Assembly: GCA_050953065.1 (NCBI GenBank)
Contig: JBMNLZ010000003.1
Location: 365,544-429,543 of the forward strand
DNA length: 64,000 nucleotides
Source of the DNA: Bacilli bacterium
GTDB lineage: Bacteria; Bacillota_I; Bacilli_A; ML615J-28; CAG-698
Reading direction: 5' to 3'
The notes under the pieces: model-generated
What the model was told of the DNA's origin: nothing
Databases searched by the model: none
What the model saw: only the letters and a program-made list of their open reading frames with translations
Shown here: positions 13,187-57,186 of the stretch, in pieces
How the letters are laid out: each line of letters starts with the position of its first letter
How positions within the stretch are numbered: position 1 is the first letter of the stretch
Position numbers and translations under genes: made by a program

Positions 13187-13292
13187 ATTCTTTTTATTTA
13201 AACACTAAAATTTTTAAAAAGTGTTCTTACTTTCTTGCGACAAGTACTATTCAATTTTCAAAGATCTATTTTTATTTCTATTATGTTAGAAA

Positions 13293-13369
<77 letters not shown>

Positions 13370-13483
13370 ACAAATTAAATATTTTAGAAAGACAAAGTCT
13401 CTCAAAACTAAATAGAACATGATGGAGTAAAAAATCAAAGAAATTTAAAATAATTTTTGGTTAAAGGTTTAACCTTTCTCCTT

Positions 13484-15018
<1,535 letters not shown>

Positions 15019-15088
15019 AAGTTTATTCCTTACTCCACCTGTTCTATTTAGTTTTCAAAGACCTTATTTTTTTGTTAGAGCATTTATC

Positions 15089-34638: not shown

Positions 34639-34649
34639 AAACATCCCTC

Positions 34650-37057: not shown

Positions 37058-38572
37058 CTACTTCATACCCGAATGAGCCATCGTTTCCATAATTTGACTC
37101 TGAGATATTATAAATATAGTAATTGGAACCGAAATCATAATCAAACTAACTGCCGCTAAAACCCCAACACGAGCAGGTCCTGCTGTTGAAATTTGAACCA
37201 GTGCATAACTTACCATTTTTAAGTCTTCACGATAAATAAATGTAGATCCATCAGCTGCCCATAATCTTTGGAATACCAAAATAATTAAAGTAAGCCAAGC
37301 AGGTTTTACTAAAGGCATAACAATAGAAAACCATATCTTAAATTCTCCAGCTCCATCAATCTTAGCTGACTCAATTAACGAAGTCGGCACTTGAGACATA
37401 AACTGTTTCATTAAGAATAGCCCTAACGGGAAGGATATCATCGGCAAGATCATAGCCCAATAAGTATCTATCAATCCAATATAGTTAAATACAATATAGT
37501 TAGGAATACTTGTTACTTCATGAGGGAACATCAATGAATAAACAATTAGTCCAAAGATAATTGATCCACCAGGAACTTTATATTTTGCTAGTGCATAAGC
37601 ACACATCGAAGCAAATATAACGTGTCCAATTGTACCCATAATAGTTATAAAAATTGTATTAAAGAAATATCTTGAGAAAGGTACTAAAGAAGCACCTAAA
37701 ACTCCACCTAAATCCTTAAAGTTTTCTAAACTAGGGTTTCTCGGGAAAAATCTTGGTGGGAATAAGAATAATTCATCAAGTGGTTTAAATGCATTTGAAA
37801 TTGTTAGAATTAATGGTAACAAACTAAATGCTCCACATAATGCTAAGAATAAGAATAAGAAAAAATCTCCAGTCTTTGATCTATTAAGTCTTTTCTTTTT
37901 CTTAGATTTCATTTTTATTTTCAAAGCATTAATTTCAGCAAATGGTCTAGAATCTACTACTCTATGTAGTTTAATTTTAGCTCCATCAACTTCTTCTAAG
38001 CCTTCTTCTTGCATCTTAGTTTTTAATTCTAAATAGAATTCATATTTTGCTAACTCTATTAAAGGGATAACCCAACAAAGCAAAACACCTAAAGTTATGA
38101 TTCCAAGTAAAATTAATGGTAAATAACTAAGATATAATTTAAACAATTCCTTTTTATGTCCATGCATCATCCTTTTACTTTTTTGAATTGCTTTAGATGA
38201 TCCTATCTTTGGTTCATCAAGCAAAATGTAAAAAGACATTGAATAACTTAAGGCTTTAACAATTCCAGGAATTATTAATAAAATTGTCCAAAAAATTTGA
38301 TAAAGTGTCTTTTTAATATATAAAACTATTTTATCGTTAATATGATTAAATTCTGAAAATAGTTTCTTTAAAGATATTTCTTCACCCTTAGAGATACTAA
38401 CTATAACACTTGAAAATCCCATTAATAATGGCCCGCCAATAATCAAGGCACCAAGTAGTGGAGGAATAATCCAAGCTGCTAAAATTATCAACCCACAGAT
38501 AAAGCTAATTAACGCTGCTGTTTTAAAATTGGGTTTAATCTTACTTAATGCAAGACTTCTATATTTTTTCAT
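37058..38572 (-). CDS. fusion: DUF975-like membrane domain + CUT1 ABC permease (MalG-type)
   Basis: Residues 1-185 match the DUF975 pattern (GGPLLMGFSSVIVSISKGEEISLKKLFSEF...). A charged linker (KKKKRLNRSK) follows, then a six-TM permease with EAA loop ESAKIDGAGEFKIWFSIVMPLVKP. Confidence 0.85.
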   Translation of the reverse strand: MKKYRSLALSKIKPNFKTAALISFICGLIILAAWIIPPLLGALIIGGPLLMGFSSVIVSISKGEEISLKKLFSEFNHINDKIVLYIKKTLYQIFWTILLIIPGIVKALSYSMSFYILLDEPKIGSSKAIQKSKRMMHGHKKELFKLYLSYLPLILLGIITLGVLLCWVIPLIELAKYEFYLELKTKMQEEGLEEVDGAKIKLHRVVDSRPFAEINALKIKMKSKKKKRLNRSKTGDFFLFLFLALCGAFSLLPLILTISNAFKPLDELFLFPPRFFPRNPSLENFKDLGGVLGASLVPFSRYFFNTIFITIMGTIGHVIFASMCAYALAKYKVPGGSIIFGLIVYSLMFPHEVTSIPNYIVFNYIGLIDTYWAMILPMISFPLGLFLMKQFMSQVPTSLIESAKIDGAGEFKIWFSIVMPLVKPAWLTLIILVFQRLWAADGSTFIYREDLKMVSYALVQISTAGPARVGVLAAVSLIMISVPITIFIISQSQIMETMAHSGMK

Positions 38573-38586
38573 CTTGTCCTCCTTTC

Positions 38587-39663
38587 CTATGTGCCGACCT
38601 TGCGGATAATCTTTTGAATTGCTTTATTAAGTAGTATCGCTGTTACGAATAATAGTGTTGCGATGGCTGAGGCATATCCCATTTCAAATCTAACACTACC
38701 ATAATCGGTTAAGTGGTTGATGATTGTATGTCCTGAATATTCAATTGAAGGGAATCCTGCCAAAGCTGTTGAAATCGCACCAACACCAAGAGAAGCTGAA
38801 ATTTGAATAACGGCACTAAATGTTAATTGTGGTTTCATATTAGGTAATGTAATAAACCATAATTCTTGCCATCTATTTCTAACACCATCCACGGCAGCTG
38901 CTTCATATTGAGTTTTATCAACGCTCTTTAATCCCGCAATTAAAGCTAGGAAGTTAACACCTAAACTCATCCATAATTGTACTACAATAATAATCGGCAA
39001 AATATATTTTGAGTTTTGAAGCCAAGTAATTGGTTCTGCAATAAATCCAAATTGGATTAAGAATGAGTTCGCATAACCATAAATATCACTATTGAAAATC
39101 AAAGTCCAAATAAGAATCGCATTTCCTGCTAAAGAAGGAGCATAGAATGCTAAAGTAATAAATGGTTTTATTTTTGGAGGTAATTCATTAATTAACCAAG
39201 CAAATACGAAACTCAGTAAATATCCAATCGGTCCAGTAACAACTGCAATAATCAAAGTGTTTTTAACTGCAGTTATAAAAATATCATCATCTAAAAACAA
39301 AGTTAAATAGTTTGAAAAGCCTACCCAACGTGGTGCTTCTAAAAGGTTAAAATAAGTAAAACTTAATCCAAAGCTCATTACAACTGGTAAAACTGTAAAA
39401 ACAGTGAATAGTAGTACATAAGGAAACATCATTAGATATAGAGTTCTATTTAAATATAGTTTTCTTCTAAAAGGTTTCTTTCTACTCCACAGATCAATTT
39501 TCTTTCCAGTGCGCTCTTTCCAAGCAATAAATCTTTTCCATAAATCTTTTAAAGTTTTCTTACCTTGAGAAGAATCATTAGACTTTGTTGATTCACTAAT
39601 TTCTTCAAGATTATTGTTTTCTTCTTTAGAAACATTTAAATCTTTATCAATTACATTTTCCAT
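38587..39663 (-). CDS. CUT1 carbohydrate ABC transporter permease (MalF-type) with ~60-aa acidic/Ser-rich N-terminal extension
   Basis: EAA loop YEAAAVDGVRNRWQELWFITLPNMKP. Confidence 0.85.
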   Translation of the reverse strand: MENVIDKDLNVSKEENNNLEEISESTKSNDSSQGKKTLKDLWKRFIAWKERTGKKIDLWSRKKPFRRKLYLNRTLYLMMFPYVLLFTVFTVLPVVMSFGLSFTYFNLLEAPRWVGFSNYLTLFLDDDIFITAVKNTLIIAVVTGPIGYLLSFVFAWLINELPPKIKPFITLAFYAPSLAGNAILIWTLIFNSDIYGYANSFLIQFGFIAEPITWLQNSKYILPIIIVVQLWMSLGVNFLALIAGLKSVDKTQYEAAAVDGVRNRWQELWFITLPNMKPQLTFSAVIQISASLGVGAISTALAGFPSIEYSGHTIINHLTDYGSVRFEMGYASAIATLLFVTAILLNKAIQKIIRKVGT

Positions 39664-39677
39664 TGATCTTCTCCTTT

Positions 39678-42600
39678 CTAATCAAGTCCAAACTCAGCGC
39701 GTTTTCTAGCAATCTCACTGTTTATAATTTGGATGTATTGTTCTAGTGTTTCGCGTGGTTCTTTATCTTTATTTACAACTTCACGGAAGGCATTTTCTAA
39801 GTTACGTCCTGTATAATATCCACCAGGAACTTCTGGTACACCAACAGTTTTTTTCCATTGAGTAGTTAATACTTCAATTTCTTTTGCTGTCCATGCCATT
39901 CTTCTAAATGCTTTAATATTAGGAGTATTATGACGAGCTGCTGGCCCTAAAACTGATTCCAATTCACGAGCATAAGCAAATTGTGTTTCTTCACTTGTCC
40001 ACCATTTCATAAATTCCCAAGCAGCTTCTTTTTCTCTAGCTTGAGCCATCATTACAACAGCAGTTCCACCTGCTGCACCTCTATGATCTAGAGTACCATC
40101 TTCTCTAATTGTTCCAGGAAGTAGGGCAAAGTCCCATTTACCTCTAATCTCTGGCGCAGAAACCATCAAAGTATTATACATTTCATAGTTAGCAATTCCA
40201 ATTGGAGTTTCCCCAGTTCTAAAACGGTTAAAGAATGATGCTGCAAGAGGGAAACTATATTCACTATAAAATCTTGACCAAGTATCAAAAGCATTCATTG
40301 CTGCAGGGCTATCAAAAGCTGATTCACGATTACCATTCTTATAGAATGTTCCATCTTGTTGATAAAGCATTGAAGCAAAGATTTGGTTAACTACAGAGTT
40401 AGCTAAAACTGTATTAAGTGGTAAATAAAATTGCAAGTTTTTAAGTTGTAATTCTGGAATAATTTCAATTACATCTTCCCAAGTCCAAGGATTTTCTAAA
40501 GTAGGACGTTTCCATTCATATTCATTGAAAATATCTGTTCTATAAAATGTTACTAAAAATGACTGAGTATTAGGTAAAGCATAATATGCACCGTTTAACT
40601 CATATGGAACCATGGCACTTGCTTGGAAGTTTCTATTTTCATCTTCTGGATCTACATTTGCAGTACATGTTCCACGAGCAATTTCATCCGCTGAACAAAT
40701 TCCAGTTGTTTCATAGAATCCCTCATATTTTGAAATATCTTCAATTGCATTACGAAGTGCATAGTTAATTGGAAGTCCATTTGGAACGTTGATTGCTACA
40801 TCAGGCCCTCTTTTTGCAAGTGTTGCTGGAAGTAGTACACCAGGTGCTACTAATTTCAAGCTAACGTTTGCATGATCAAATGTATCTAAAATTAGATTAC
40901 TCAAAGCATTTGCTTGTTCACGTCCAGCTGTCTCACTTGTTAAAAACCAAACTTGAATTGTTGGTAAATTAGCTTTAGCTTCAGTTACACCAATACTTTC
41001 ATAATCAAAGAAGAATGATTTGAAGAATGATTTAATACTAAACCAACTACCTGCAAAGAAATTAGGATTTGCTTTTGGCAAAGCATTTTTCCTGCTTAAA
41101 CTTGATTTATCTGAATGAATAAATAATTGATCAACTACAATTGATTGTTCACTGATTTGTAAAATCCATGTTCCTAAAGCTGAAATGTTGTTACTATAAT
41201 CTTTAAGACGTCTTTGAATCGTTCTAACGTTATTAACAAATGAATCAAGTTGTAGAGCCATTCTATCAAGACTTGCTGTCATATCGCTTTTCCCACCAGA
41301 TAATTCAGCTAAGATTCTATTAACATCTCTTAACTCTTTTGCACATTTTGCAAATGTTTCTTTTAATCCAACAATGCTTTTGCCATCTTCATAATAAACA
41401 GAAACAAAATCAGCTAAGTTTTCTACTAAGTAATAATCAATATATGGGTCTGGGTTTAAAGTAGTAACTGCAATAATTCTACGATAAACTCTATTTAACT
41501 CATCAATTACTGTATTTACTCTACTAACTAAACTACTGTAATCTCCTAAAGTTGCTTCCATTGTAATAGTATTTTTACCAGCATTTAAGTGGAAATAATA
41601 TGGAATTTCTTTTCCTGTCTCATCAAAGCCGCCCAAAGTCATGATTTTCCAATCTCTACTAAACTTGTATTTAGTATTTAGTGCTTCATCAAAAGGTACC
41701 TCACCATTTATTAAAACTTTTCTTGTCGTATAAACACCTCTTGAAACTCCTTGTTTTGCTCTAAATGAAATTTGATATAATCCTTCTTTTTCTACATCTA
41801 CTTTCCAAGAAATCCAATCGCCAGGTGAAGACCATTTAGTTCCACCAATTGCATTATATCTAATCCTTACAGGGTCACACGGAGAGTTCTTCGCACTCGT
41901 TCTATCATTTACTGCATAAAGTGTCGCAGATGAAGATGTTCTAATGTTTGGGTCTTCTGCTTCGTATAAAATCATCGTATCATCAACTTTATCAGCATCA
42001 TCAAACTGACCTATATAATCACTATAAGACATATAATCAGTTTTAGCACAAATATCAATTGCAAAAATACTCATTGGTTCTCTAATTGATTCAATTGTGA
42101 TTGTATTTTCACCTTCAAGCAAATGAATTAAATAAGGTTCAGTAACATACCCTAAATCATCTACAACATAGGCTCTAGTAATTTTTGGTTTTTCAATTTG
42201 AGTTGGTTTCATATCATTGCCCATGGCATCCATAAAGAACATTGATCCTTTAGATGCATCAATTGGACCATCTCCCCAAGTTCTTGAAAACACAATATTT
42301 TTCAAAGCCTCATATGGAGTTACGCCATTGATTTTAATACTTCTTTCAATTGATGCAGAACCACCTTTCTCAGGATAATAACTAAGTCTAATATTATAAT
42401 ATCCTGCATCTGGTACTGTAAATTTCCAAGTTGCACTACCTACTTCTGAAGTATAAAAAGGCTTAACTCCATTTACGATTGTTGCAAGATTAGCAACATC
42501 TGTAAAATCAGAGTGTACTAAGTCAGTATTATTTGTTGTATCAATAGTAATATTATTATTTGGAGTAATCATTTCATATGCTTTTAAATACTCCCCATAT

Positions 42601-42770
42601 TCGCCAACTATTTCATAATCTCCAGGCACTGTTGCTTTTGTATAAACATGGCCCGAAGCATAACTTGTAATCACACTACTTAAAAATAATGCAACTAAAA
42701 GAACTAGTATAATTAGCAAGATACTGCGTTTAACTAATTTAGGTGTGATCAATCCCTTAAGTTTTTTCAT
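39678..42770 (-). CDS. 1030-aa membrane-anchored protein: two CBM-like beta-sandwich modules + helical linker + C-terminal extracellular solute-binding domain
   Basis: N-terminal TM. There is an internal duplication: ATWKFTVPDAGYYNIRLSYYP...RSIKINGVTPYEAL...FSRTW and ISWKVDVEKEGLYQISFRAK...RKVLINGEVPFDEAL...FSRDW (a CBM6/35-like pattern). The C-terminal ~400 aa are SBP-like. Its ATGA overlaps GH20. Confidence 0.82.
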   Translation of the reverse strand: MKKLKGLITPKLVKRSILLIILVLLVALFLSSVITSYASGHVYTKATVPGDYEIVGEYGEYLKAYEMITPNNNITIDTTNNTDLVHSDFTDVANLATIVNGVKPFYTSEVGSATWKFTVPDAGYYNIRLSYYPEKGGSASIERSIKINGVTPYEALKNIVFSRTWGDGPIDASKGSMFFMDAMGNDMKPTQIEKPKITRAYVVDDLGYVTEPYLIHLLEGENTITIESIREPMSIFAIDICAKTDYMSYSDYIGQFDDADKVDDTMILYEAEDPNIRTSSSATLYAVNDRTSAKNSPCDPVRIRYNAIGGTKWSSPGDWISWKVDVEKEGLYQISFRAKQGVSRGVYTTRKVLINGEVPFDEALNTKYKFSRDWKIMTLGGFDETGKEIPYYFHLNAGKNTITMEATLGDYSSLVSRVNTVIDELNRVYRRIIAVTTLNPDPYIDYYLVENLADFVSVYYEDGKSIVGLKETFAKCAKELRDVNRILAELSGGKSDMTASLDRMALQLDSFVNNVRTIQRRLKDYSNNISALGTWILQISEQSIVVDQLFIHSDKSSLSRKNALPKANPNFFAGSWFSIKSFFKSFFFDYESIGVTEAKANLPTIQVWFLTSETAGREQANALSNLILDTFDHANVSLKLVAPGVLLPATLAKRGPDVAINVPNGLPINYALRNAIEDISKYEGFYETTGICSADEIARGTCTANVDPEDENRNFQASAMVPYELNGAYYALPNTQSFLVTFYRTDIFNEYEWKRPTLENPWTWEDVIEIIPELQLKNLQFYLPLNTVLANSVVNQIFASMLYQQDGTFYKNGNRESAFDSPAAMNAFDTWSRFYSEYSFPLAASFFNRFRTGETPIGIANYEMYNTLMVSAPEIRGKWDFALLPGTIREDGTLDHRGAAGGTAVVMMAQAREKEAAWEFMKWWTSEETQFAYARELESVLGPAARHNTPNIKAFRRMAWTAKEIEVLTTQWKKTVGVPEVPGGYYTGRNLENAFREVVNKDKEPRETLEQYIQIINSEIARKRAEFGLD

Positions 42771-44617
42771 TTTTTTACCCCTTCTATGTATTTTAATCTT
42801 TCTTCTGAAAATACAATTAGTTTTTCAATATAATCTAACGTTTCATTTAACATGCTTTCTTTGTTTCTTTGAAGCCATAAAGTTTTTAAATCATTTTTAA
42901 TTTTTAAAGCGTCTTTTAAGGCTTCTTTTAACAGTGTGATTCTTACAGTTTTTTCTAAAGAATCATTCCCACAAACATTAATTTTTAGTAATAAAGAAAT
43001 CATCTCAATTGTCCAAACAACTTCATCTTTAATTAAAGAATCATTAAATTTGATAAGCTCAATTTCTTTTTTCTTATAGTTTAAATATTCTTCTGCACTT
43101 TGATATTTCTTATAACTCAAAGTATTATATTTCATCTTTTCTTTAACATATTCTATCCTATTTTCTTCTTTGAAAGAATAAGTTATCCAAAGCAACATAT
43201 AAAATGTAGCAGTCCCATTACCAATATAAGCATTTTCAAAGCGATTGATTGTTCCTAAATCCATAATAGCATCTGCTATTAGGTTTTCTTTATCTTTGAA
43301 AATAAATCTATTTAAATATTGTTTAACTGATAGATAAACTCCTTCTTCACATCTGTAACTCATTAAGCCAGCATAGACAAGTGGTGCAAAACTAAATGGT
43401 AACATCTGCATATGTCCGACATCTCCCCAATCAGTTAATAAGATTCCTTCACCACCGTTATCCTTAACAGCCCAACAAGCGTTCGCAATGTTCTCAATCC
43501 AATCACTTTGTCTTAGTGATAAACTACACCAAGAAGTAGTTCCAGGAGCTGCCATGAATTTTACTTTGGCTTTTTTTAGCTTTTTAATATTTTTAGAGAA
43601 AGAATAAAAAGCATCATAGCCCCAATCAATAAAAATCATATCTTTTGGAAGCTTTTTAAATAACTCAGGATGATTATTTAAAACATCTCCCCAAATCAAA
43701 GGAATTTTTTTATATTTTTTTATCTCTTTATAAGCTTTTAATGTATAGTCTAAATAAACCTTGCCAAGACCTACTTTCTCACATTCAGCCTTTGACTTAC
43801 CTTTACCTAGTTCAAATGGTTCATCAAAGTTCATATTGAAGTATTTTGAATTAGAATGAGGCAACATATCTTGATACATTTTCTTTAATAACTCTAAAGA
43901 TTTTGGATCAAGTGGATTGAGTGTACTTGGCGCTCTATGAGTCCCCCATAAATGAATTCCTTCAGGACACTCTGCCAAACTAGAAAACTCATCTTTTTTA
44001 AGCCAAGCGGCCATATGACCAAAACCATTTTGATTTGGAACTAAATCTATAAAATGTTTATTAGCATAGTCTTCAATTGCTTTATATTCTTCAACTGTAA
44101 TATATGAATCCTTTTTTAAATAATCTTTAAAACTTTGATATTCAAAAGAAAAACCTTCAACATATAATTCTAAATGATTCATTTTTAAATCACTCATAAT
44201 ATCAATAATTTTAAAAACAGTTTCTATTTTAGGAACTTTATTTCGGCTTATGTCATACATAAAGCCTCTTATTTTTAAATCTGGTTCATCATAGATTTCT
44301 AGACATTCTATTTGATTGTTTTTAATAATTTGTTTTAAAGTCTTAACTGCATAATATGCACCTGGTGCATCTTTATGATAAATCGTAATAACATCTGGTT
44401 TAACTTCAATTTTATATGCTTCAGCACTTAATTTTTTGTCAATAAAAAAACGAACATCGGCTTTTTTAGATTTACCTACTTGCAAATTTAAAAAAGAATC
44501 CAATTCTTTCTTAACTATTTCATTGGGCTTGTCAAAAAAAGCAATGCTCTTTTCTTTCATTTTGTAAACGTCGTTATTATATTTTATTTCTTTTACCTTA
44601 GGAAATATATTTACCAT
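42767..44617 (-). CDS. GH20-like beta-N-acetylhexosaminidase, cytoplasmic
   Basis: TIM-barrel region RGFMYDISRNKVP...MNHLELYVE...NQNGFGHM...FNMNFDEP resembles the GH20 catalytic domain. No signal peptide is present. Confidence 0.78.
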   Translation of the reverse strand: MVNIFPKVKEIKYNNDVYKMKEKSIAFFDKPNEIVKKELDSFLNLQVGKSKKADVRFFIDKKLSAEAYKIEVKPDVITIYHKDAPGAYYAVKTLKQIIKNNQIECLEIYDEPDLKIRGFMYDISRNKVPKIETVFKIIDIMSDLKMNHLELYVEGFSFEYQSFKDYLKKDSYITVEEYKAIEDYANKHFIDLVPNQNGFGHMAAWLKKDEFSSLAECPEGIHLWGTHRAPSTLNPLDPKSLELLKKMYQDMLPHSNSKYFNMNFDEPFELGKGKSKAECEKVGLGKVYLDYTLKAYKEIKKYKKIPLIWGDVLNNHPELFKKLPKDMIFIDWGYDAFYSFSKNIKKLKKAKVKFMAAPGTTSWCSLSLRQSDWIENIANACWAVKDNGGEGILLTDWGDVGHMQMLPFSFAPLVYAGLMSYRCEEGVYLSVKQYLNRFIFKDKENLIADAIMDLGTINRFENAYIGNGTATFYMLLWITYSFKEENRIEYVKEKMKYNTLSYKKYQSAEEYLNYKKKEIELIKFNDSLIKDEVVWTIEMISLLLKINVCGNDSLEKTVRITLLKEALKDALKIKNDLKTLWLQRNKESMLNETLDYIEKLIVFSEERLKYIEGVKK

Positions 44618-44780: not shown

Positions 44781-44808
44781 AAAAAGCAAGGTTTTAAAAC
44801 CTTACTTT
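44781..44808 (-). terminator. terminator overlapping the stop codon of the 44802-46142 gene
   Basis: AAGTAAGGTT/AACCTTGCTT stem (one G-U pair) with loop TTAA, followed by T5 on the minus strand. Confidence 0.6.
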
Positions 44809-46142
44809 TCAAATTTTATTGTTATAACAGGCCTTATTCCAATAGTCGAATAAGCATTGTTAAAGCCTGTAACACTAACCTTACCATCAAAGAAAACCCC
44901 TGATAAATATTGCATTGTAAAACCAGGTGATCTTGAGAAATATTTTCCTTGATTAGTAGAAGAATTTTCAACACCTGTTTTAATTGCAAACTCAGTATTA
45001 TAAGCAATCCTATTAGAATCTGCTTCATCTGTTTTTGTTTTAAATCCAAAACGCTTTCTAATCAAATCATTGTATGATAACAAATAAACATAATCTTGTG
45101 TATCATCACCTTCATTAGCAGCATAGGCAGGATAAGAAATTCCTTTATTAGAAACGGTTGTTAAAACAATCCCACTTTTTTCGCTACTACTAAATGAAGC
45201 ATTATAAAAATCATTGTTTAACCAAAATCTTAAATAACTATTCTTCCAAGTTTTATCGTTATTATCAACAATTACAATTTTATAATTAACAACTGTTGTT
45301 TCTTCTGGATGTTCTTTTGTAGGGCCACTTCCAGTTATTGTTACTTCACCTTTTGAAATTGCATTTACCATTACTTGTACTTGAGCTTTTAGTTCTCCTT
45401 TTACTCCATTAATTACCCAATATCCCGCTTCATCAATTTCTAGTTCAGCGCTAGTTGCTTCTCCTACTGGAACATATGTATTTTTACCTTCAATCCACCA
45501 ATTGTTATCAGAGCCAACTGTAGCTTTAATTGTATCGATATTTTTACTTACTAAAGCAAGATTTTCATCACTTGAGGTCCAAGTAGAATTTACTAAATCC
45601 ATATTAGTAGCCCCTATATAAATACTTCTTGTTTCTCCGATTCCAAATAAATAATTATGATAAGAAGCTTTAGAATCTAATATTTTATCAGATACAAGAA
45701 CCGCATTAACCCCATCAATACTTAAAATTTTCCATTCAATTGAATCAACTAAGAAAAACTCTCTTGATTCAATGTAGGTTTCTTCTCCTTCAACTACTTC
45801 TCTTGTAAAAGTAGAAACTTTAGCATAACGATGTCCTTCATATGGGTAATATCCATAACTATCAGCAAGAATTGTCTCTTCATCAATTCCAGCATTTAAC
45901 GATGCAATTATTTCATCATCTGTTACTAATCTTTGAGGATATTCACCATAAAACATTTTACTATAAGTTACAGTATTTTTCTCTACATCAATAATTGGAT
46001 TATGATATCCTGCATCAAAATAATACGTTACCTTTTCTGGAGTAGTTATTGCCTCAGGATCACTATCAACAGGGCTTTTATCACAAGCACTAAGTACTAA
46101 TAATAAAACTATAATCAATGAGCAAAATAATCTCTTCTTCAT
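44802..46142 (-). CDS. lipoprotein of unknown function (Big_2-like middle, DUF6273-like C-terminus?)
   Basis: The start MKKRLFCSLIIVLLLVLSAC|DKS at 46142 has RBS AGAGG. The C-terminus ...YFSRSPG...GKVSVTGFNNAYSTIGIRPVITI resembles the DUF6273 pattern as I recall it. Confidence 0.72.
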   Translation of the reverse strand: MKKRLFCSLIIVLLLVLSACDKSPVDSDPEAITTPEKVTYYFDAGYHNPIIDVEKNTVTYSKMFYGEYPQRLVTDDEIIASLNAGIDEETILADSYGYYPYEGHRYAKVSTFTREVVEGEETYIESREFFLVDSIEWKILSIDGVNAVLVSDKILDSKASYHNYLFGIGETRSIYIGATNMDLVNSTWTSSDENLALVSKNIDTIKATVGSDNNWWIEGKNTYVPVGEATSAELEIDEAGYWVINGVKGELKAQVQVMVNAISKGEVTITGSGPTKEHPEETTVVNYKIVIVDNNDKTWKNSYLRFWLNNDFYNASFSSSEKSGIVLTTVSNKGISYPAYAANEGDDTQDYVYLLSYNDLIRKRFGFKTKTDEADSNRIAYNTEFAIKTGVENSSTNQGKYFSRSPGFTMQYLSGVFFDGKVSVTGFNNAYSTIGIRPVITIKFEK

Positions 46143-46253: not shown

Positions 46254-47558
46254 TTAAACTGGCTTTACTTCTTTTGTCCAAATGGTTTTTAATAATTTCC
46301 TACCTTCAACAAGGGCAACAACATCTTCTTTAACAAAAGAATTATAAGTAAAATAAATTGTTCCAGAAATATTGTCATAATTTTGATTATACCTAAGTTG
46401 ATTAATTATCTCTTCTGGATTACTCCAATTTCCTTTATCGCTATAGCGATAAAATGCTTGACCAATATATAATTTCGTATTAGTTTCTTTACAAATTCCA
46501 CTCCACCATTTTACTAAATCAGCATATTTTACTAAAGTGATTTCTTCTAAAGAACCATCTTCTTTTGGTTTAGAATTATCTAAATCAAAATAAACTTGAG
46601 GTACTACGTAATCAATCCATTTTTCTTTCATCCATAAGTAAACATCTGCATAAAGTCTATCATAACATTGCAAGCATTTCTCATGATTATCAGACCCTTT
46701 ATCCCAACCACCAACTCCAGATTCAAAATATTTTGAATGAGTTCTAAAAATACCAAAAGGACTGATTCCAAATTCTACCTTTTTAGGAAGTCTAGCTAAC
46801 TTATCATGAATAAGTTTAATCATACGATTAACATTGTCTCTTCTAAAGTCACTCAAAGATTCATCATTTTTCTTCCATTTTAAATATTTTTCTTGTTCTT
46901 TATCATCACAAATTTCCTCATAAGGATAAAAATAATCATCGATATGAACAGCTTTTATATCATAGTTTTCAGCAATTTCTAAAACTGAATCAGAAACAAA
47001 TTCCATTACTTCTTCACTTGATGGGTCTAGAATTAGTTTTGTTTCTGAAGTTTCAATTACTAAATCAGGACGCTTGCGAGCAAAGTTTTTCTCACTTAAT
47101 GTTTTTAAAAAGTCATCTTTATTAGTATTTAAATCTTTTAATCTTTTTTGACAAACACGATATGGATTAATCCAAGCATGAACTTCAATGTTTTCCTTTT
47201 TAGCTTCTTCTATAAAGAAACCAAAAACATCAAAGCCAGGATATTTATCCTCAATTCCAGTAATATATGCACTCCAAGGATTTAACTTTGATTTATAAAA
47301 TGCATCATTTGTTGGTCTTGCTTGAAAAATAACTGTATTCATTTTATATTCTTTAACACGTTTTATAACACTTTTTAAATATTCTTTATAACTTTCAACA
47401 CTAGTCATTTTAGCTACATCAATATTAGCAACAGTCGAAAACCAAACACCACGCAATTCTTCTTGCTTTTCTTTATATTCATCTGGTATTAAAACAGCCT
47501 CATCGCTTCCATAATAAGTAACAAAACCTTCTTTTTTAAACTTAGCAATTTTTTTCAT
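46254..47558 (-). CDS. GHL10/DUF187 (YngK-like) glycoside-hydrolase-like protein, no signal peptide
   Basis: ELRGVWFSTVANID, HAWINPYR and KAVHIDDYFYP are the characteristic GHL10 blocks. Confidence 0.78.
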   Translation of the reverse strand: MKKIAKFKKEGFVTYYGSDEAVLIPDEYKEKQEELRGVWFSTVANIDVAKMTSVESYKEYLKSVIKRVKEYKMNTVIFQARPTNDAFYKSKLNPWSAYITGIEDKYPGFDVFGFFIEEAKKENIEVHAWINPYRVCQKRLKDLNTNKDDFLKTLSEKNFARKRPDLVIETSETKLILDPSSEEVMEFVSDSVLEIAENYDIKAVHIDDYFYPYEEICDDKEQEKYLKWKKNDESLSDFRRDNVNRMIKLIHDKLARLPKKVEFGISPFGIFRTHSKYFESGVGGWDKGSDNHEKCLQCYDRLYADVYLWMKEKWIDYVVPQVYFDLDNSKPKEDGSLEEITLVKYADLVKWWSGICKETNTKLYIGQAFYRYSDKGNWSNPEEIINQLRYNQNYDNISGTIYFTYNSFVKEDVVALVEGRKLLKTIWTKEVKPV

Positions 47559-47559
47559 T

Positions 47560-48252
47560 TTATATCTCCTTATTTCTTATAAATTTTTGATAGTCTTCAA
47601 CTGCAAAAGCAGCAGCATTTTTCGTTTTATTTAAAGCACCCCTTACAAAAGATAAATGCGTATAATAATCATAATATTTAAATGAAGGACTATTCATAAT
47701 AAACCAATGTTTTTGAATTGCTTTACACCATAAATCATATCCTTCAGTCCCATCAATATAAACATATGGAACAAAGCCATCTCGATCTTCCCAGTTTTCA
47801 CAGTAATATATAGGAGCATAATGTCTTTCACCTTCTACCTTATCGCCCATATCAACGCCAGCATAAAAAGCTGCATCAACTACGTTTAAATAAGTATTTC
47901 TATGATCTTTATGCATACTGTTTTTCCAATGCGTAAAGATAGCACTTGGTTTATATTTTCTAATTAAACTAGCAATTCTAAACTTAACTTCATCATTAAC
48001 TGGTAACTCTCCATCAGGATATTCAAAAACAATTGCATCCCCTTTTAACATACGAGCAAATTCGCTAGCTTCTTTTTCTTTTTGAAGCCTATATTCTTCT
48101 ACACTCATACCTTTAGGATTACCACGCTCTCCTCCAGTTAAAGCAATAGTTACAATTTTATTTCCCTTTAAACTTTCAGTAGCAAGAATTAACCCTGCCG
48201 TTAATTCCATATCACCAACATGGCCACCAATTGCTAAAAATGTTTTACTCAT
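47560..48252 (-). CDS. PIG-L/LmbE family N-acetylglucosaminyl deacetylase
   Basis: LAIGGHVGDMELTAGL...HKDHRN are the PIG-L zinc-site motifs. Confidence 0.85.
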   Translation of the reverse strand: MSKTFLAIGGHVGDMELTAGLILATESLKGNKIVTIALTGGERGNPKGMSVEEYRLQKEKEASEFARMLKGDAIVFEYPDGELPVNDEVKFRIASLIRKYKPSAIFTHWKNSMHKDHRNTYLNVVDAAFYAGVDMGDKVEGERHYAPIYYCENWEDRDGFVPYVYIDGTEGYDLWCKAIQKHWFIMNSPSFKYYDYYTHLSFVRGALNKTKNAAAFAVEDYQKFIRNKEI

Positions 48253-49268: not shown

Positions 49269-50336
49269 TTAAGTAAAGTTAGCGATTATATAATTTCCAA
49301 TTTTACTTCTAAAAGGAATTATCTTATTGTTTTCTCTTGTTGGATGAACTCTATTACTTAACATACAAAAAGCAATTTTATTATCTCTATCAATAAATAA
49401 ATTAGTCCCCGTAAAACCAGTATGTAAAATTGTATTAGGACTTGCTAAGTCTCCACATGATGGATAATCACTCTTTAAGATCCACCCTAACCCTCTTTTA
49501 CTACCAACTAAACTAATTCCTTCTTTTTCTTCTACTTGTGGGGTAAAAAGCAAATCAATACTTGCTTTAGATAAAATGCGTCTACCTTTATATACTCCAT
49601 TATTTAAAATCATTTCCATAAAGTTACCAATATCATCTGCTGTTGAAAATACTCCAGCATGTCCTGCAACACCACCTAAAATATAAGCTTTTTCATCATG
49701 AACTTTTCCACGTAATAAATCCTGACAAATAGCATCATTTCTTTTTTCAGTTGGAGCACATCTTTCAGTATTTTTAGGATTATATGTTGTATCTTTCATA
49801 TCAAGTTTTGAAAAAACATATAATTTAGCTGCTCTATCTAAACCCATTCCTGAAACTGTTTCAATTAGTTTCCCCAGCAAAATAAAACCGATATCTGAAT
49901 ATATTATCTTTTCACTTCTTCCTGCTTTAAGTGGTACTTTATAAGCAAAATCAAAAACCTCTTCAGGCTTTGCTAGTGTATTAGCTTTAGGAATATCAGG
50001 TACTAAACCTGAAGTATGAGTCATTAAATCAAAGATAGTAATATCATCGTTTTTAAAATCAGGCAAGTATTTACTAACACTATCATAAAGCCTTATTTTA
50101 CCCGCTTCTAATAATTGCATTAAAAGTGTAGTTGTAGAAACAACTTTCGAAACTGAAGCCATATCATAAATTGTATTAATATAATTTTCTTCCTTTTTAG
50201 GAAGCAACGCTTTATACCCAAAAGCTCCAGTATAACGCCTCTTTCCTGCAATCAAACAATAAGTCGCACCGGGAAAAACACCATCTTTAACAGCTTCTTC
50301 CATCAAATCATTAAACCCAATCATTTTAGAATTCAT
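49269..50336 (-). CDS. beta-lactamase-fold serine hydrolase (AmiE/YbbE-like MurNAc-L-Ala amidase candidate)
   Basis: SxxK motif MASVSKVV and YSD (YxN-like). No signal peptide is present. The ATG at 50336 is preceded by AAGGGGA and overlaps the upstream stop. Confidence 0.78.
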   Translation of the reverse strand: MNSKMIGFNDLMEEAVKDGVFPGATYCLIAGKRRYTGAFGYKALLPKKEENYINTIYDMASVSKVVSTTTLLMQLLEAGKIRLYDSVSKYLPDFKNDDITIFDLMTHTSGLVPDIPKANTLAKPEEVFDFAYKVPLKAGRSEKIIYSDIGFILLGKLIETVSGMGLDRAAKLYVFSKLDMKDTTYNPKNTERCAPTEKRNDAICQDLLRGKVHDEKAYILGGVAGHAGVFSTADDIGNFMEMILNNGVYKGRRILSKASIDLLFTPQVEEKEGISLVGSKRGLGWILKSDYPSCGDLASPNTILHTGFTGTNLFIDRDNKIAFCMLSNRVHPTRENNKIIPFRSKIGNYIIANFT

Positions 50337-52503
50337 AAACTTTCCCCTTAAATCTATTATAAAAATTATCAAATGTGATTTTTTTAATTACATTATCACT
50401 ATAGCCTTTAACACGAAGCCTTTCAATTAAAAGATTAATTTCAGTTACTTTAGAAATCTCTTTTGTATTAGAACTTGGAAAATCATCCAAATAATCCATA
50501 AAGTCTAACCCTAAACATACATTATCAATCCCAAGTGCATTAATAGCATATTCAATATGTTTAATAAACATATCAATACTTTTATCTTCTTTTGAAATGA
50601 AATTTCCAACTAAAGTTAAACCTAATAAACCATCGGCTTCTTTTAATGCTTTTAATTGAGCATCATCTAAATTTCTTTTATGATCACATAGACTTCTAAT
50701 ATTTCCGTGTGAATAAATAATATTTTTATTTGTTAGTTTTAAAACATCAAAAAAACTTTGATAATTTAGATGAGCTAAATCAATTATCATATCAAGTTTT
50801 TCCATTTTTTTAATTAAATCTTTTCCTTTTTCAGTTAAGCCTCTTTCAGGATTGCCCTTTACTCCAGTAGCATAATCATTTTCTTCATTCCATGTTAACA
50901 TTGCATGACGAAAACCTAATTTATATAAAGTATCTAAATCATTTATGCTTTTTAAATTTCTTAACCCTTCAAAACCTAAAATCAATTTAAAATCAACTAA
51001 TAATTTAAAATCAATTTGAGCAAGAGCCTTTTTAGATGCTTCAATTAAATCAAATTCATCAGGCGAATATAGTGTCCAAAGTCCACCTTTAACTGATGTT
51101 TCTGATAATTGTTGCAAGTGAAAATCAAATCTATTTTCAATTCCCATTTTAGCCTTATCATATAAATCATATAAGATATCAGTGTGAGTATCAAAGATAG
51201 GCAAACTTTTTTGATTAAAACTAGATAAAAGTTTATCATAACTTTCTCTTTTAATTGCTAGATTAACGTTATCCTCTTTTACAAAAACAACAGCTGGTCT
51301 AACATGAGAATTATAATTCATAGACATTGAATATCCATATGCTCCAGTTGAATAAACAACTAAAATATCTCCTCTTTTAAAACTAGGCACTTCTACTCCT
51401 TGAGCTATGATATCACCACTCTCGCAACAAGGTCCAACAATATCACATTTAATAGTTTTTAACTCATTCATCTTATTAGCTACATCAACACTATATTTAG
51501 CTTGATATAAAGCAGGCCTAATATTATCATTCATTCCACCATCAACTGGTAAATATATTTTCTTATTATAAGTTTCTTTCAAATCACCTATTGTATAAAG
51601 TGTACTACAAGCATCGCCTACAATACTTCTGCCTGGTTCAATCATTAAAGTATTTAAAGCAATTTTAAATTTATTAGTTAAATCTTCTACTTCTTTTACA
51701 ACTTCTTTTAAAGTTTTTTCCAAATCAATTTCAGTATCTGTTTTTAAATATTTAATTCCAAAGCCTCCACCTAAATTAAGAACCTTCGCCTCAAAGTCAT
51801 ATTTTTCTTTTACATCTTTTAAAAACTCTACCATTGTTTTAGCTGAATTAATAAAAGAATCAGGAGTTGTTATTTGAGAACCAATATGAGCATGAAAACC
51901 ATCTAATTCAATATAAGATGCATTTTTATAAAAGTCAATTATTTTTTCTATTTTTGCCTCATCAAAGATTGACTCTCCAAATTTAGAATCAACAGATGAT
52001 GTTTGAATATATTCATGAGTATGAGCTGAAATTCCAGGGTTTATTCTAAATAAAGTTTTAACTTGTTTTTTGTTGATTCTAGCAATTTTTTCTAATCTTT
52101 CTAACTCTGGAATATTGTCTACAATAATATATTTTACTCCTAATTTAACTGCAAATTCTAATTCTTCATCCGTTTTATTATTTCCATGAAAAACTGCTTT
52201 AGAAAGAGGAAAGTTAGTTTTATGTAAAATATATAAATCTCCATAACTAACACTATCAATCCCAACATTATATTCTAATAAAATATCATTTAGATAACTT
52301 GAAAGAAAAGCTTTAGATGCATAATATATTTCACAATTAAACTTCTTACTTTTAAAGTTATTAATAAAAGTAGATATTTTATTTCTCAAATGCAATTCAT
52401 CAAAAACCATTAAAGGAGTCCCATAAATTCTTGCTAAATCTTTAGCAGATTTTTTACCAAAATATAATGCGTTTCCTTTAACACTCATTCCTAATGTTTT
52501 CAT
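50326..52503 (-). CDS. fusion protein: diaminopimelate decarboxylase (LysA-type, PLP fold III) + M19 membrane-dipeptidase-family domain
   Basis: The N-terminal ~425 aa carry YASKAF (PLP Lys), HAHIGSQ, LGGGFG, EPGRSIVG, CCESGD and GAYGYSM. The C-terminal ~300 aa carry IFDTHTDILYD...LTWNEEN...DLAHLN...SHGNIRSLCDHKRNLDD (M19). The ATG at 52503 has RBS GAGGA; the track start is a GTG. Confidence 0.88.
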   Translation of the reverse strand: MKTLGMSVKGNALYFGKKSAKDLARIYGTPLMVFDELHLRNKISTFINNFKSKKFNCEIYYASKAFLSSYLNDILLEYNVGIDSVSYGDLYILHKTNFPLSKAVFHGNNKTDEELEFAVKLGVKYIIVDNIPELERLEKIARINKKQVKTLFRINPGISAHTHEYIQTSSVDSKFGESIFDEAKIEKIIDFYKNASYIELDGFHAHIGSQITTPDSFINSAKTMVEFLKDVKEKYDFEAKVLNLGGGFGIKYLKTDTEIDLEKTLKEVVKEVEDLTNKFKIALNTLMIEPGRSIVGDACSTLYTIGDLKETYNKKIYLPVDGGMNDNIRPALYQAKYSVDVANKMNELKTIKCDIVGPCCESGDIIAQGVEVPSFKRGDILVVYSTGAYGYSMSMNYNSHVRPAVVFVKEDNVNLAIKRESYDKLLSSFNQKSLPIFDTHTDILYDLYDKAKMGIENRFDFHLQQLSETSVKGGLWTLYSPDEFDLIEASKKALAQIDFKLLVDFKLILGFEGLRNLKSINDLDTLYKLGFRHAMLTWNEENDYATGVKGNPERGLTEKGKDLIKKMEKLDMIIDLAHLNYQSFFDVLKLTNKNIIYSHGNIRSLCDHKRNLDDAQLKALKEADGLLGLTLVGNFISKEDKSIDMFIKHIEYAINALGIDNVCLGLDFMDYLDDFPSSNTKEISKVTEINLLIERLRVKGYSDNVIKKITFDNFYNRFKGKVYEF

Positions 52504-52542
52504 AAGTTTCCTCACTAAAAATTAATTAAACTATCAAATCAT

Positions 52543-52551
52543 ATTATAACA
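52543..52551 (-). promoter_or_regulatory. extended -10 element (TGTTATAAT) for the lysA-fusion operon
   Basis: This is the only -10-like element between the SRP RNA terminator and the RBS. The -35 is poor. Confidence 0.4.
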
Positions 52552-52600: not shown

Positions 52601-52717
52601 GATTCTTTACTTAATTTCCCACACTCACATACCAAGTTAAGCTTAAGGCTGCTTCAGTCAAGACCTGACCTGGTTCACTGCCTGATATTGAATGCAGGAA
52701 TCTAAATAAAGAATCCC
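52601..52717 (-). ncRNA. ffs: signal recognition particle RNA, short 4.5S type
   Basis: The minus strand reads ...GTGAACCAGGTCAGGTCTTGACTGAAGCAGCCTTAAGC..., the conserved domain IV. The 5' GGGATTCTTTATTTAGATTCC pairs with the 3' GGGAAATTAAGTAAAGAATC, followed by T6. TGGTATAAT sits 7 nt upstream, at 52725-52733. Confidence 0.85.
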
Positions 52718-55900: not shown

Positions 55901-56305
55901 GTTAACTATTACAAAAGTTTGAGTATTAGGGTCTGGTTTGTTTTCGCCTGGGTTATCATCAATTGGATTATCAGTTGATCCATCATCTATAGCAGTTACT
56001 ATTACAGTTATCTTAATAAAGACTTCTGTATTTAAAACTCCAATTGTTAGTTCAGCTTGACCTGCACTAATTCCACTAATAACTCCATTTGAAACTGTAA
56101 AAATAGCCTCGTTAGAAGAAACATAGTAAAGGGCATTAGTTGATCCTACAACTTTAGGAGCAATTGAGACCATATCTTCTTCCTCAACAGTAATAGTATA
56201 ACTATCAACTGTAATTTTAACTTCTCCACTCCCTAAACTTAAACCTTGACAACCAACTAATAAAATACTAATTAACAAAGTAAAAACAATAAAGATTTTT
56301 TTCAT
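52913..56305 (-). CDS. giant surface lipoprotein: about nine Big_2 domains + purple-acid-phosphatase-like metallophosphoesterase at the C-terminus
   Basis: Lipobox LISILLVGC|QG. Big_2 units (VTWTSSDSTVATIDVNGRVTGMKVGTATITAT and similar) are repeated. The C-terminus has the phosphoesterase motifs DVH, GDLTAHG, GNHD, SHREF and GDDHVY after an FN3-like PAP N-domain. Confidence 0.88.
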   Translation of the reverse strand: MKKIFIVFTLLISILLVGCQGLSLGSGEVKITVDSYTITVEEEDMVSIAPKVVGSTNALYYVSSNEAIFTVSNGVISGISAGQAELTIGVLNTEVFIKITVIVTAIDDGSTDNPIDDNPGENKPDPNTQTFVIVNGNQNLTVGSTVTLQVLLGGEIVNGTISWMSSNGEVASITSNGVLTAKAAGVTSIIALYGARSATIVVNVRTDGAVVVKPTSLIINGSSFVNVSDSVILTVTPNQGNITGITWTSSDNSKATVNEFGIVTGVATGIVTITATLTDDTSVSNTFTLVVKESETSASPITSINLSGANEVLQGNKIKLNVTYTPANEPATFTYASSNTSVAIVDAAGWVTGVSGGVVQITASLVGDPEKKANFTVTVIPLPTGITINGASTVSYGQNIILTATATPTGATNIVTWTSSDSTVATIDVNGRVTGMKVGTATITATSIVSASIKATHQVTVTDQMSITLNPTSLNLVAGSNQTLTATVVAASLTDKSVSWSSSNTSVATVDSNGKVTAVAAGTANIIAKLNANNSIQAQASVTVTAQPTPTITLSDTTASLLVNATKTLTATVTNASNTSVTWTTSNATVATVTNGVVTAKAAGTATITATSVADTSVKATCTITVTNPPAGTLTITADPSANVPVGGSGYQIYVRDSGGTSVSRLECVFTSSDSSVATVSTYGTISALKDGTVTITVTHPSKGSGTITLTIGTGGSNPPGGTMPAATGTSSLVFASPGANASSQMNISWHHTTSGGYLEYTKKSDTTYANKVQVAPSSTSASFVSTSDGNSQGYNGTVSYFRKLVNITGLTANTEYRYRIIGSSASSDYYFKTASTTTFSFIYMSDVHAYPALSSRLSTANSLVSRAESKVSGLSFVLFTGDLTAHGSDYYQWKHLATAPFAKNYFLASVPGNHDYYKAQGSVYPEHTSDVYYNAMFNNPKNGASGISNSSYYFKYNNVLFVGINSEVLDTTRRNAQKSWLSTVINNNPSDFVIAFSHREFFHGSTASAPSGVAKSSDCYNIYGSTLESLGVDLVLSGDDHVYVRSKPIKNGAVSTASVGTVYITANQIGARGRIATAASSYSAKVYGGSTNNNDISTISTITVSSTQITGQMFNASGTVLDTYSIPKK

Positions 56306-56323
56306 TTTTAACTCCTCTAAAAA

Positions 56324-56368
56324 AGCTACTTGTACAACACCTCAATTTTTATGTATTAACAAGTAGCT
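56324..56368 (-). terminator. possible terminator/attenuator hairpin between the GDPD and lipoprotein genes
   Basis: 10-bp stem AGCTACTTGT/ACAAGTAGCT with a long 25-nt loop, followed by T6 on the minus strand just before the next RBS. Confidence 0.4.
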
Positions 56369-56376
56369 GATCTGTT

Positions 56377-57177: not shown

Positions 57178-57186
57178 TCAAGTTTC

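Follow-up and report, generated by a model that had tools for sequence, protein, structure and literature searches.

Beyond the MpaA/YcjG/PepD enzymes of E. coli and the YkfABC enzymes of B. subtilis, the fate of peptidoglycan stem peptides is poorly charted. In E. coli, murein tripeptide is catabolised by LdcA, MpaA, YcjG, PepD and then LysA (Uehara and Park 2003, summarised in PMC2954226), and the B. subtilis system comprises murQ-murR-murP-amiE-nagZ-namZ together with ykfABCD (PMC8054146, PMC2954226). We analysed a 64,000-nucleotide stretch of DNA from a Bacilli bacterium (contig JBMNLZ010000003.1 of assembly GCA_050953065.1; hereafter the window) where a different, conserved set of enzymes was found. 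Its central gene is a single open reading frame (ORF) in which a LysA-type diaminopimelate decarboxylase is fused to a dipeptidase domain of peptidase family M19, and it is located in a locus of approximately 34 kb which seems, from its predicted genes, to be devoted to the import and breakdown of muropeptides.

The scheme proposed for this locus resembles the E. coli route in that tetrapeptide is shortened to tripeptide, meso-diaminopimelate (mDAP) and L-Ala-D-Glu are released and mDAP is passed to LysA, and LdcA (family S66) was observed in the clusters of 19 relatives. It differs in that the window locus encodes an M19 dipeptidase instead of homologues of MpaA, YcjG and PepD, that LysA is encoded within the catabolic cluster and fused to a peptidase, and that import would proceed by ABC systems and not by AmpG or Opp. 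With B. subtilis the locus shares MurQ, an AmiE-family hydrolase (PF00144), NagZ (GH3) and NamZ, all of which are encoded together with AnmK. In contrast to the B. subtilis system, the window enzymes carry no signal peptides where these were checked (the fusion, S12 and GHL10 proteins), the locus is without the phosphotransferase system (PTS) protein MurP and without YkfB and YkfC, the presence of AnmK implies the use of anhydro-muropeptides, and the LysA-M19 unit has no counterpart. None of the enzymes by which the known routes process stem peptides (LdcA/YkfA, MpaA or YkfC, YcjG/YkfB) was found, as there is no S66 gene in the 64 kb window and no M14, NlpC/P60 or MR_MLE protein among the scanned ORFs. 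By its predicted gene content, the window cluster agrees with the known recycling systems in the part that handles sugars and not in the part that handles peptides. A previous study lists lysA with pbp4b, NamZ, anmK and murQ among the bacterial genes acquired by bacterivorous ciliates (PMC13198582), and this set would fit the general idea of a peptidoglycan-linked lysA.

The closest solved relatives of the dipeptidase half are the compact bacterial M19 enzymes Lmo2462 (3NEH/3LU2), Rsp0802 (3FDG/3LY0) and Sco3058 (3ID7), together with human DPEP1 (1ITQ), which have the same fold and all the metal and catalytic residues in common with it. Lmo2462 also has the LTWN motif, with a tryptophan replacing human His152. 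The M19 half of the fusion differs from them in being only approximately 35-45% identical and in belonging to a tight subfamily of its own, which is always found within a peptidoglycan cluster and is often fused to LysA. Bacterial M19 enzymes have solved structures and L-Xaa-D-Xaa activity in vitro, and we know of no physiological substrate for these comparators and of no established physiological role for bacterial M19 enzymes in general; none was found in the literature either, and no M19 enzyme in peptidoglycan recycling is described in the literature searched. A described LysA fusion protein is the aspartate kinase/diaminopimelate decarboxylase (NF006515), in which the partner is biosynthetic so that the first and last steps of lysine synthesis are combined. 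When the NF006515 model was applied to the window protein, it matched the LysA part only (model positions 528-855; 191 bits against a cut-off of 802) and no aspartate kinase was found.

The fusion gene is read on the minus strand from an ATG at 52503 to a stop codon at 50326-50328, giving 725 residues in one uninterrupted frame. A mechanical ORF list places the start further out at GTG 52515, but this codon falls within the Shine-Dalgarno sequence GAGGA (52513-52509) that belongs to ATG 52503, and therefore the single ORF and its coordinates given in the preliminary description are right. All the motifs quoted there are also present in the translation (YASKAF, HAHIGSQ, GGGFG, EPGR, CESGD, GAYGYS, FDTHTD, LTWNEEN and SHGN...HKRNLDD). 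No signal peptide was found in the protein, which is accordingly predicted to be cytoplasmic. In the AlphaFold model the individual domains are confident (pLDDT 87.9), whereas the relative orientation of the LysA and M19 halves is not predicted at a pTM of 0.62.

The N-terminal half scored 417.5 bits with the lysA equivalog model TIGR01048 of NCBIfam (cut-off 297.9), well above the models for D-Orn/D-Lys, arginine and N-citrylornithine decarboxylases, and the rival models were observed to be weak (DokD 162.7 bits against a cut-off of 700; SpeA 38 against 624). By these scores the half is a LysA, as first described, and not an ornithine, arginine or D-Orn/D-Lys decarboxylase. Among solved structures it comes closest to LysA of M. 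tuberculosis (1HKV, 256 bits), and a Foldseek comparison of the AlphaFold model with LysA structures gave TM values to target of 0.86-0.90. The fold-III architecture, an alanine-racemase-like barrel with a C-terminal beta domain, is supported by PF02784 and PF00278, with Orn_Arg_deC_N matching residues 44-295 (151 bits) and Orn_DAP_Arg_deC matching residues 297-387 (69 bits). An alignment of 35 diverse fused proteins showed K64, H204, G245-G247, E289-R292, R329, Y333, C360-E361 and Y389 to be invariant; the lysine of the pyridoxal phosphate (PLP) cofactor (K64), H204/H206 of the HIGSQ motif and the phosphate-binding GGG (G245-G247) are thus kept throughout. R292 (EPGR), R329 and Y333 (NIRPALY) and C360-E361, again invariant in the 35 proteins, align to 1HKV. 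From the 1HKV and 1TWI structures we take these residues to hold the distal L-centre of DAP, with the Cys-Glu of CESGD presumably contributed by the partner subunit. Since the residues gripping the free L-centre are retained, the alignment points to free mDAP, and not peptide-bound mDAP, as the likely substrate of the LysA half.

The C-terminal half was matched by Peptidase_M19 (PF01244) with 229.7 bits (cut-off 26) in two stretches, separated by a gap that reflects the reduced N-terminal third typical of compact bacterial M19 members. Among the PDB relatives, Rsp0802 and Lmo2462 are closest and GliJ and human DPEP1 follow. Residues H440, D442, E512, H578, H599, R610 and D667 are invariant in the 35 fused proteins. 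The H-x-D metal ligands (H440 and D442), the bridging glutamate E512 and the two histidines H578 and H599 were also observed to be kept in at least 90% of 125 outgroup M19s. From human DPEP1 and Sco3058, we assume that R610 binds the C-terminal carboxylate of the substrate and that D667, in the DF motif, is the catalytic aspartate. The equivalent of human His152 is not present in this half, where Trp538 (LTWN) is found at that position. Lmo2462 has the same tryptophan, as do at least 90% of the compact bacterial M19s in the comparison, and Trp538 is therefore a trait of the bacterial branch and no loss of function. Both domains of the fusion are complete, with all catalytic residues conserved.

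The bacterial enzymes Sco3058, Lmo2462 and Rsp0802 prefer L-Xaa-D-Xaa dipeptides, and known M19 enzymes cleave alpha-peptide bonds in dipeptides bearing a free alpha-amino group. The crystal structures of Lmo2462 and Rsp0802 reportedly carry phosphinate mimics of L-Leu-D-Ala and L-Ala-D-Ala. The M19s related to the fusion form a tight subfamily in which three 50%-identity representatives scored above 270 bits, with all others at 224 bits or less. Compared with 125 generic compact M19s, this subfamily has five private positions (S480, L486, N516, L631 and N679), none of which is charged. The substrate class therefore appears conventional, and the private residues give no further substrate call. 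As all the catalytic residues are shared with the 125 generic M19s and the five private positions are uncharged, an alpha-linked L-Xaa-D-Xaa dipeptide is a more likely substrate for this half than a gamma-glutamyl bond.

M19 was also found joined to another stem-peptide-processing enzyme, in an Amidase_2-M19 fusion (approximately 480-497 aa, 40-73% identity) of which no description was found in the literature. Its partner is an AmpD-type MurNAc-L-Ala amidase and, in contrast to the LysA-M19 fusion, its M19 belongs to another lineage (approximately 37% identity) and it is rare, with seven clusters (P0329 and P0404-P0409). One of these clusters carries the annotation Candidatus Woesearchaeota, a DPANN archaeon without a wall. 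This second fusion would independently tie M19 to stem peptides, and it slightly favours a substrate with N-terminal L-Ala. Further M19 architectures among the distant relatives were a Maf-M19 protein (P0357, 680 aa) and tandem double-M19 proteins (P0376, P0383 and P0386; 653-898 aa).

The preliminary description had proposed a domain-architecture search for Orn_DAP_Arg_deC with Peptidase_M19. In a large protein collection, 108 clusters of full-length fused proteins (700-745 aa, all three Pfam domains) were found. P0001 and P0003 are 91% and 81% identical to the window protein and all the others 49-56%; a third close relative, P0002, is 99% identical and partial (686 aa). P0001-P0003 come from assemblies other than that of the window. 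The public names of the fused proteins are of the kind 'MAG: diaminopimelate decarboxylase [Bacilli bacterium / Acholeplasmataceae bacterium]' (for example MDD3170860.1), and among species-representative genomes the fusion was located in metagenome-assembled genomes (MAGs) that bear the labels Acholeplasmataceae, Acholeplasmatales, Mollicutes, Tenericutes or Bacilli and were recovered from digesters, guts and sediments. The 108 clusters derive without exception from MAGs of Acholeplasmataceae, 'Bacilli' or 'Tenericutes'. The LysA-M19 fusion is common in public data, where it is hidden under the annotation 'diaminopimelate decarboxylase'; more than 100 database entries carry this name only, which masks half of the protein. 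The preliminary description knew of no described LysA-M19 fusion, and none was found in literature covering the fusion, M19 in recycling, LD-dipeptidase and the Acholeplasma DAP pathway. One candidate, L061, with a match up to residue 540, was rejected because it consists of a high-GC lysA of the ordinary kind (439 aa) with an unrelated ORF behind it.

The two halves also occur as separate genes. In locus L081, from a sister lineage, a 437-aa LysA and a 297-aa M19 are encoded by two genes overlapping by 8 nt at the same position and in the same synteny as the fusion. The LysA gene ends in ...GAGGAGGAAAATAATGAATAA, with a GGAGG Shine-Dalgarno sequence in its last codons followed by the ATG of M19. 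Stand-alone M19s of the fusion's subfamily (approximately 296 aa) form at least 107 clusters, and LysA and M19 are adjacent in nearly all the split lineages examined. As an example, they remain neighbours in the divergent lineage L083, where the cluster is reshuffled to S12-GNAT-S66-LysA-M19-GHL10-GHL10-GH20-SBP (SBP, solute-binding protein).

Fused and split states are interspersed in a neighbour-joining tree of the M19 domain, with a minimum of seven changes. When 103 sequences were bootstrapped 100 times, each replicate required a minimum of 6-10 state changes as against 31.6 for shuffled labels, so that the recurrent change between fused and split states across the family is robust. The junction sequences vary between fused clades and some keep the former initiator methionine of M19; for example, a fused ...STCVFKEEK-MKIFDTHSD was observed against a split ...STCVFEEENNE* followed by MKIFD. 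Repeated fusion would be a simpler reading than repeated splitting, because passing from split to fused needs one frameshift at the overlapping stop and start while the reverse needs a new Shine-Dalgarno sequence, start and stop. The window protein forms a clade with P0001 and P0003 which has its own junction and a deep branch. Its M19 half is equidistant from fused and split relatives (54.3 and 54.2% identity), and its LysA half is 52.0% identical to fused and 55.7% to split forms. This is suggestive of a separate fusion event in the window clade.

Conserved synteny links the fusion with peptidoglycan catabolism. The order fusion, S12, GNAT, PIG-L, (S66 LdcA), GHL10, GH20, SBP and permeases is kept in approximately 20 loci at only about 50% identity (tblastn, 25 related loci). 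An S66 LD-carboxypeptidase, the enzyme that cleaves mDAP-D-Ala in tetrapeptides, is located between PIG-L and GHL10 in 19 related loci (for example at 14955-15893 in L001). By tblastn it is absent from the whole 64 kb window, where PIG-L and GHL10 abut at 47558-47560, and it is not present in the split-form loci L081 and L082. The preliminary description had named a wide occurrence of the fusion without amino-sugar context as a finding that would speak against it; every locus extending past the gene, fused or split, was instead observed to have a peptidoglycan or amino-sugar context.

The fusion is thus quite likely to be a cytoplasmic bifunctional enzyme which finishes the catabolism of peptidoglycan stem peptides and converts the freed mDAP to lysine. 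We favour this reading because of the synteny with NamZ, AnmK, MurQ and LdcA, the repeated fusion and the intact active sites. Muropeptides would enter through the adjacent ABC importers, and their sugars would be removed by the NagZ-like GH3 enzymes, NamZ, GH20 and GHL10 and then go through AnmK, MurQ and NagB. The AmiE-like S12 hydrolase would release the peptide L-Ala-gamma-D-Glu-mDAP(-D-Ala), the M19 half would act on a fragment of this peptide at an alpha-linked L-Xaa-D-Xaa bond, and the LysA half would decarboxylate the D-centre of the freed meso-diaminopimelate to yield L-lysine. For this scheme we infer the enzyme activities, the order of the steps, the M19 substrate and the channelling between the halves. 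Our first choice of M19 substrate, held tentatively, is mDAP(L-centre)-D-Ala, from which the LysA half would directly receive mDAP as the product. The two ABC importers with giant lipoprotein binding proteins, AnmK and the adjacent surface proteins suggest that wall fragments might be taken up from outside, although the cell may instead be recycling its own wall. The stem-peptide disposal function proposed in the preliminary description likewise appears supported by the conserved gene order, by LdcA in 19 loci and by the downstream sugar-recycling genes.

The enzyme families and the type of pathway are known; what is undescribed is their combination, which has been selected recurrently and suggests a new role for M19. 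A repeatedly fused pair in a peptidoglycan-catabolic cluster provides a testable hypothesis for what bacterial M19 enzymes do. If the M19 half hands meso-DAP to LysA, this would be the first physiological role for bacterial M19 dipeptidases and a third, non-homologous solution for stem-peptide breakdown. Furthermore, a LysA in a catabolic or salvage module, and not in a biosynthetic operon, bears on the lysine supply and the use of necromass by reduced-genome Bacilli in digesters, guts and sediments.

Several observations weigh against a stem-peptide enzyme that feeds LysA. The ORFs scanned in the locus include no gamma-D-Glu-mDAP peptidase (MpaA/M14 or YkfC/NlpC-P60) and no L-Ala-D/L-Glu epimerase (YcjG/YkfB, MR_MLE), so that the step yielding mDAP-D-Ala or free mDAP is without a candidate, and an M19 dipeptidase alone cannot reduce the tripeptide to free mDAP. 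The S66 LdcA of most relatives would already take D-Ala off the tetrapeptide, and therefore a dipeptidase acting on mDAP-D-Ala would be partly redundant there. At the pTM of the AlphaFold model no inter-domain geometry is confident and channelling is unsupported, and all the enzyme activities are predicted from sequence. In the divergent lineage L085, the M19 gene is not beside LysA and lies between two GHL10 genes. In addition, the split-form relative L081 keeps a gene for a MurA-type enolpyruvyl transferase (ISGAKNSAVAIIPA; positions 1-238, minus strand, N-terminus ...VQISGAKNSAVAIIPA...) approximately 10 kb from the cluster, and this lineage may still be building some peptidoglycan. When the 79-aa N-terminus of this MurA was compared with genome contigs in a search that needs exact 8-mers, none of the approximately 20 fusion-bearing MAGs was among the 80 best loci and the top matches reached only 53-55% (Bacillales). 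The MurA-type gene of L081 adjoins a gene for an M55 D-aminopeptidase (DppA-like).

The alternative that survives best is that the two halves serve parallel branches. Some other enzyme would split the tripeptide into L-Ala-D-Glu and mDAP, the former being taken by M19 and the latter by LysA, so that M19 takes the place of the epimerase and PepD used by E. coli and B. subtilis; in another form, M19 would remove L-Ala from L-Ala-gamma-D-Glu-mDAP, where the free alpha-carboxylate of D-Glu mimics an L-Xaa-D-Xaa dipeptide. We consider this arrangement possible without being probable, and L-Ala-D-Glu as the M19 substrate is nearly as likely as mDAP-D-Ala. L-Ala-D-Glu is an L-Xaa-D-Xaa dipeptide, a class which M19 accepts, the locus has no epimerase of the YcjG/YkfB type, the Amidase_2-M19 fusion sets M19 right behind an enzyme that exposes N-terminal L-Ala, and an LdcA in the cluster already handles the mDAP-D-Ala bond. 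However, fusion and translational coupling mostly involve consecutive steps or subunits of one complex and here the product of M19 would not be the substrate of LysA, while a gamma-D-Glu-mDAP peptidase would still be required and has no candidate.

This missing step would be supplied if the M19 half were itself a gamma-D-Glu-mDAP hydrolase, non-homologous to MpaA (M14) and YkfC (NlpC/P60), that feeds the LysA half. The fusion would then become one of consecutive steps, and it is the case that S12, M19 and LysA are the only peptide-acting enzymes of the minimal cluster in L081. Yet known M19s cut the alpha bonds of dipeptides with a free alpha-amino group, and almost no private active-site changes were noticed relative to the 125 generic M19s, unlike what is expected for a re-tooled enzyme, which makes this activity improbable. 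A wider scenario may nevertheless be drawn, in which Acholeplasma-like bacteria, some of them perhaps with a thin wall or none, feed on the peptidoglycan of other bacteria. In these bacteria, M19 would release meso-DAP (from mDAP-D-Ala or gamma-D-Glu-mDAP) straight to the fused LysA, an unrecognised route fused at least six times, and lysine would come from foreign wall and not from the DAP pathway. We put this forward as speculation that may well turn out otherwise.

A biosynthetic enzyme, in which LysA performs the last lysine step and M19 replaces the N-acyl-LL-DAP deacylase (DapE/DapL-like), is very unlikely. The M19 barrel does belong to the amidohydrolase superfamily, which includes N-acyl-amino-acid deacylases, and the LysA half scores as a full equivalog of the biosynthetic enzyme. 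Against this, no dap gene is adjacent in any of the approximately 25 loci and the conserved neighbours are all importers or genes for the catabolism of peptidoglycan or amino sugars, no lysine riboswitch is present in the window, and DapE and LysA are not consecutive since DapF acts between them. An artefact, in which an error of sequencing or assembly at the A6 run of the junction ('CAAAAAAG') shifted the frame and so joined two genes, is hardly credible in spite of this run and of the relatives with split forms, because the fused frame is retained, with differing junction residues, in P0001 (91%) and P0003 (81%) from other assemblies, 108 full-length fused clusters exist, many on several contigs, and the window junction has no relic of a start codon or Shine-Dalgarno sequence. 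No stop interrupts the reading frame across the junction DNA, and the loss of a stop codon there, which the preliminary description had asked to be checked, is excluded by the relatives from other assemblies which share the architecture.

The fusion heads a six-gene unit (Table 1), and the AmiE-like, GNAT, PIG-L and GHL10 genes that had been noted behind it were identified again by Pfam matches. The S12 gene likely starts at the ATG at 50336, where a Shine-Dalgarno sequence is read, and overlaps the 3' end of the fusion by 11 nt. Its product scored 168 bits with the PBP4B model NF002968, under the cut-off of that model. B. subtilis AmiE/YbbE is a PF00144 protein (PMC10653849) and a MurNAc-L-Ala amidase that acts with NagZ and NamZ (PMC8054146); 'AmiE-like' is thus a fair name for the S12 gene at the family level. 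A GlcNAc-6-P deacetylase of the NagA type (Amidohydro_1) is missing from the ORFs scanned in the locus, where PIG-L and a NagB-like protein are present, and PIG-L may be standing in for NagA. A nagB-PIGL fusion is listed in ciliates (PMC13198582). The two GH3 proteins scored 324 and 272 bits with Pfam. Duplications are observed in the locus, namely two paralogous double-GNATs, two GH3 genes and two ABC importer sets. In L083 the GNAT stands among peptide-acting genes (S12-GNAT-S66-LysA-M19).

Table 1. Coordinates in the window of the fusion gene, its parts and the predicted features of the locus.
Feature	Position	Strand	Basis or remark
LysA-M19 fusion coding sequence, 725 aa + stop	50326..52503	minus	ORF translation; first gene of transcription unit
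LysA half, residues 1-427, predicted PLP fold-III meso-diaminopimelate decarboxylase	51223..52503	minus	TIGR01048, 1HKV match, Foldseek, invariant residues
Junction/linker, residues 428-435 (SFNQKSLP), ~8 residues	51199..51222	minus	Short, unconserved, varies between fused clades
M19 half, residues 436-725, predicted compact bacterial renal-dipeptidase-type TIM barrel with binuclear metal site	50329..51198	minus	PF01244, PDB relatives, pLDDT mostly >90
Candidate extended -10 element TGTTATAAT (52551-52543) and Shine-Dalgarno GAGGA (52513-52509)	52509..52551	minus	Consensus match, read from sequence
S12 beta-lactamase-fold serine hydrolase (PBP4B/AmpH/AmiE-like)	49269..50336	minus	PF00144, 191 bits
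Double-GNAT acyltransferase, 327 aa	48256..49239	minus	Pfam; conserved synteny
PIG-L/LmbE-type zinc de-N-acetylase	47560..48252	minus	Pfam, NCBIfam, synteny
GHL10 glycosyl-hydrolase-like protein, no signal peptide	46254..47558	minus	Pfam, synteny
DUF6273 lipoprotein, last gene of the unit; lineage-specific insertion, also in L086	44802..46178	minus	Pfam
Intrinsic-terminator-like hairpin, 13 pairs + T run, closing the six-gene unit	44781..44810	minus	Sequence
GH20 hexosaminidase	42767-44617	minus	Syntenic with fusion in relatives
Solute-binding protein, 1030 aa	39678-42770	minus	Syntenic with fusion in relatives
Two ABC permeases	within 37058..44617	minus	Syntenic with fusion in relatives
DUF5696 protein (1068 aa, 401 bits), Yip1-domain membrane protein and TPR protein	31438-37045	minus	Between the two permease pairs
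Two ABC permeases (second pair)	29306-31436	minus	Domain matches
GH3, NagZ-like	27730-29238	minus	Pfam
NagB-like	27021-27743	minus	Pfam
Second double GNAT, 318 aa	26093-27049	minus	Pfam
Big_2 + SBP	24349-25998	minus	Pfam
DUF624	23525-24244	minus	Pfam
NamZ	22405-23544	minus	NamZ_N/C, 278 and 160 bits
Second GH3, NagZ-like	20835-22397	minus	Pfam
AnmK	19668-20819	minus	Pfam, 321 bits
MurQ-like SIS (SIS/GKRP-type) protein	18791-19702	minus	Pfam; end of locus

Upstream of the fusion, or of the split pair, the Dus, deaminase and TK genes are directly adjacent in L001 and L081, with Dus immediately upstream. The window keeps Dus and the deaminase at 61373-62801, but approximately 9 kb (52913-61191, minus strand) is inserted before the fusion. 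The insertion encodes two lipoproteins with Big_2 repeats (1334 and 1130 aa) and a GDPD glycerophosphodiesterase (56377-57177), and the counterpart of the 1130-aa protein in the close relative L086 carries a Metallophos domain. These proteins may be surface enzymes which scavenge other envelope polymers such as teichoic acids and phospholipid head groups. In L086, which is the contig of P0001, the fusion is intact and other genes were observed in pieces (beta-lactamase of 120 + 94 aa, PIG-L of 171 aa, GHL10 of 322 aa and GDPD in two pieces); the pieces probably reflect assembly errors at a coverage of 2.9x and not pseudogenes.

Directly upstream of the fusion in the window is a bacterial small SRP RNA gene (52609-52704, minus strand; 46 bits against a gathering score of 40), which has a promoter TTTAAA-16-TGgTATAAT at 52752-52725. 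The window also contains a complete rRNA operon on the minus strand (9992-15019), consisting of 16S (13486-15019), a tRNA (13296-13369), 23S (10320-13184) and 5S (10172-10283) with two tRNAs after it. This operon accounts for the rise in GC content to 41-49% in a window that otherwise has 26-34%.

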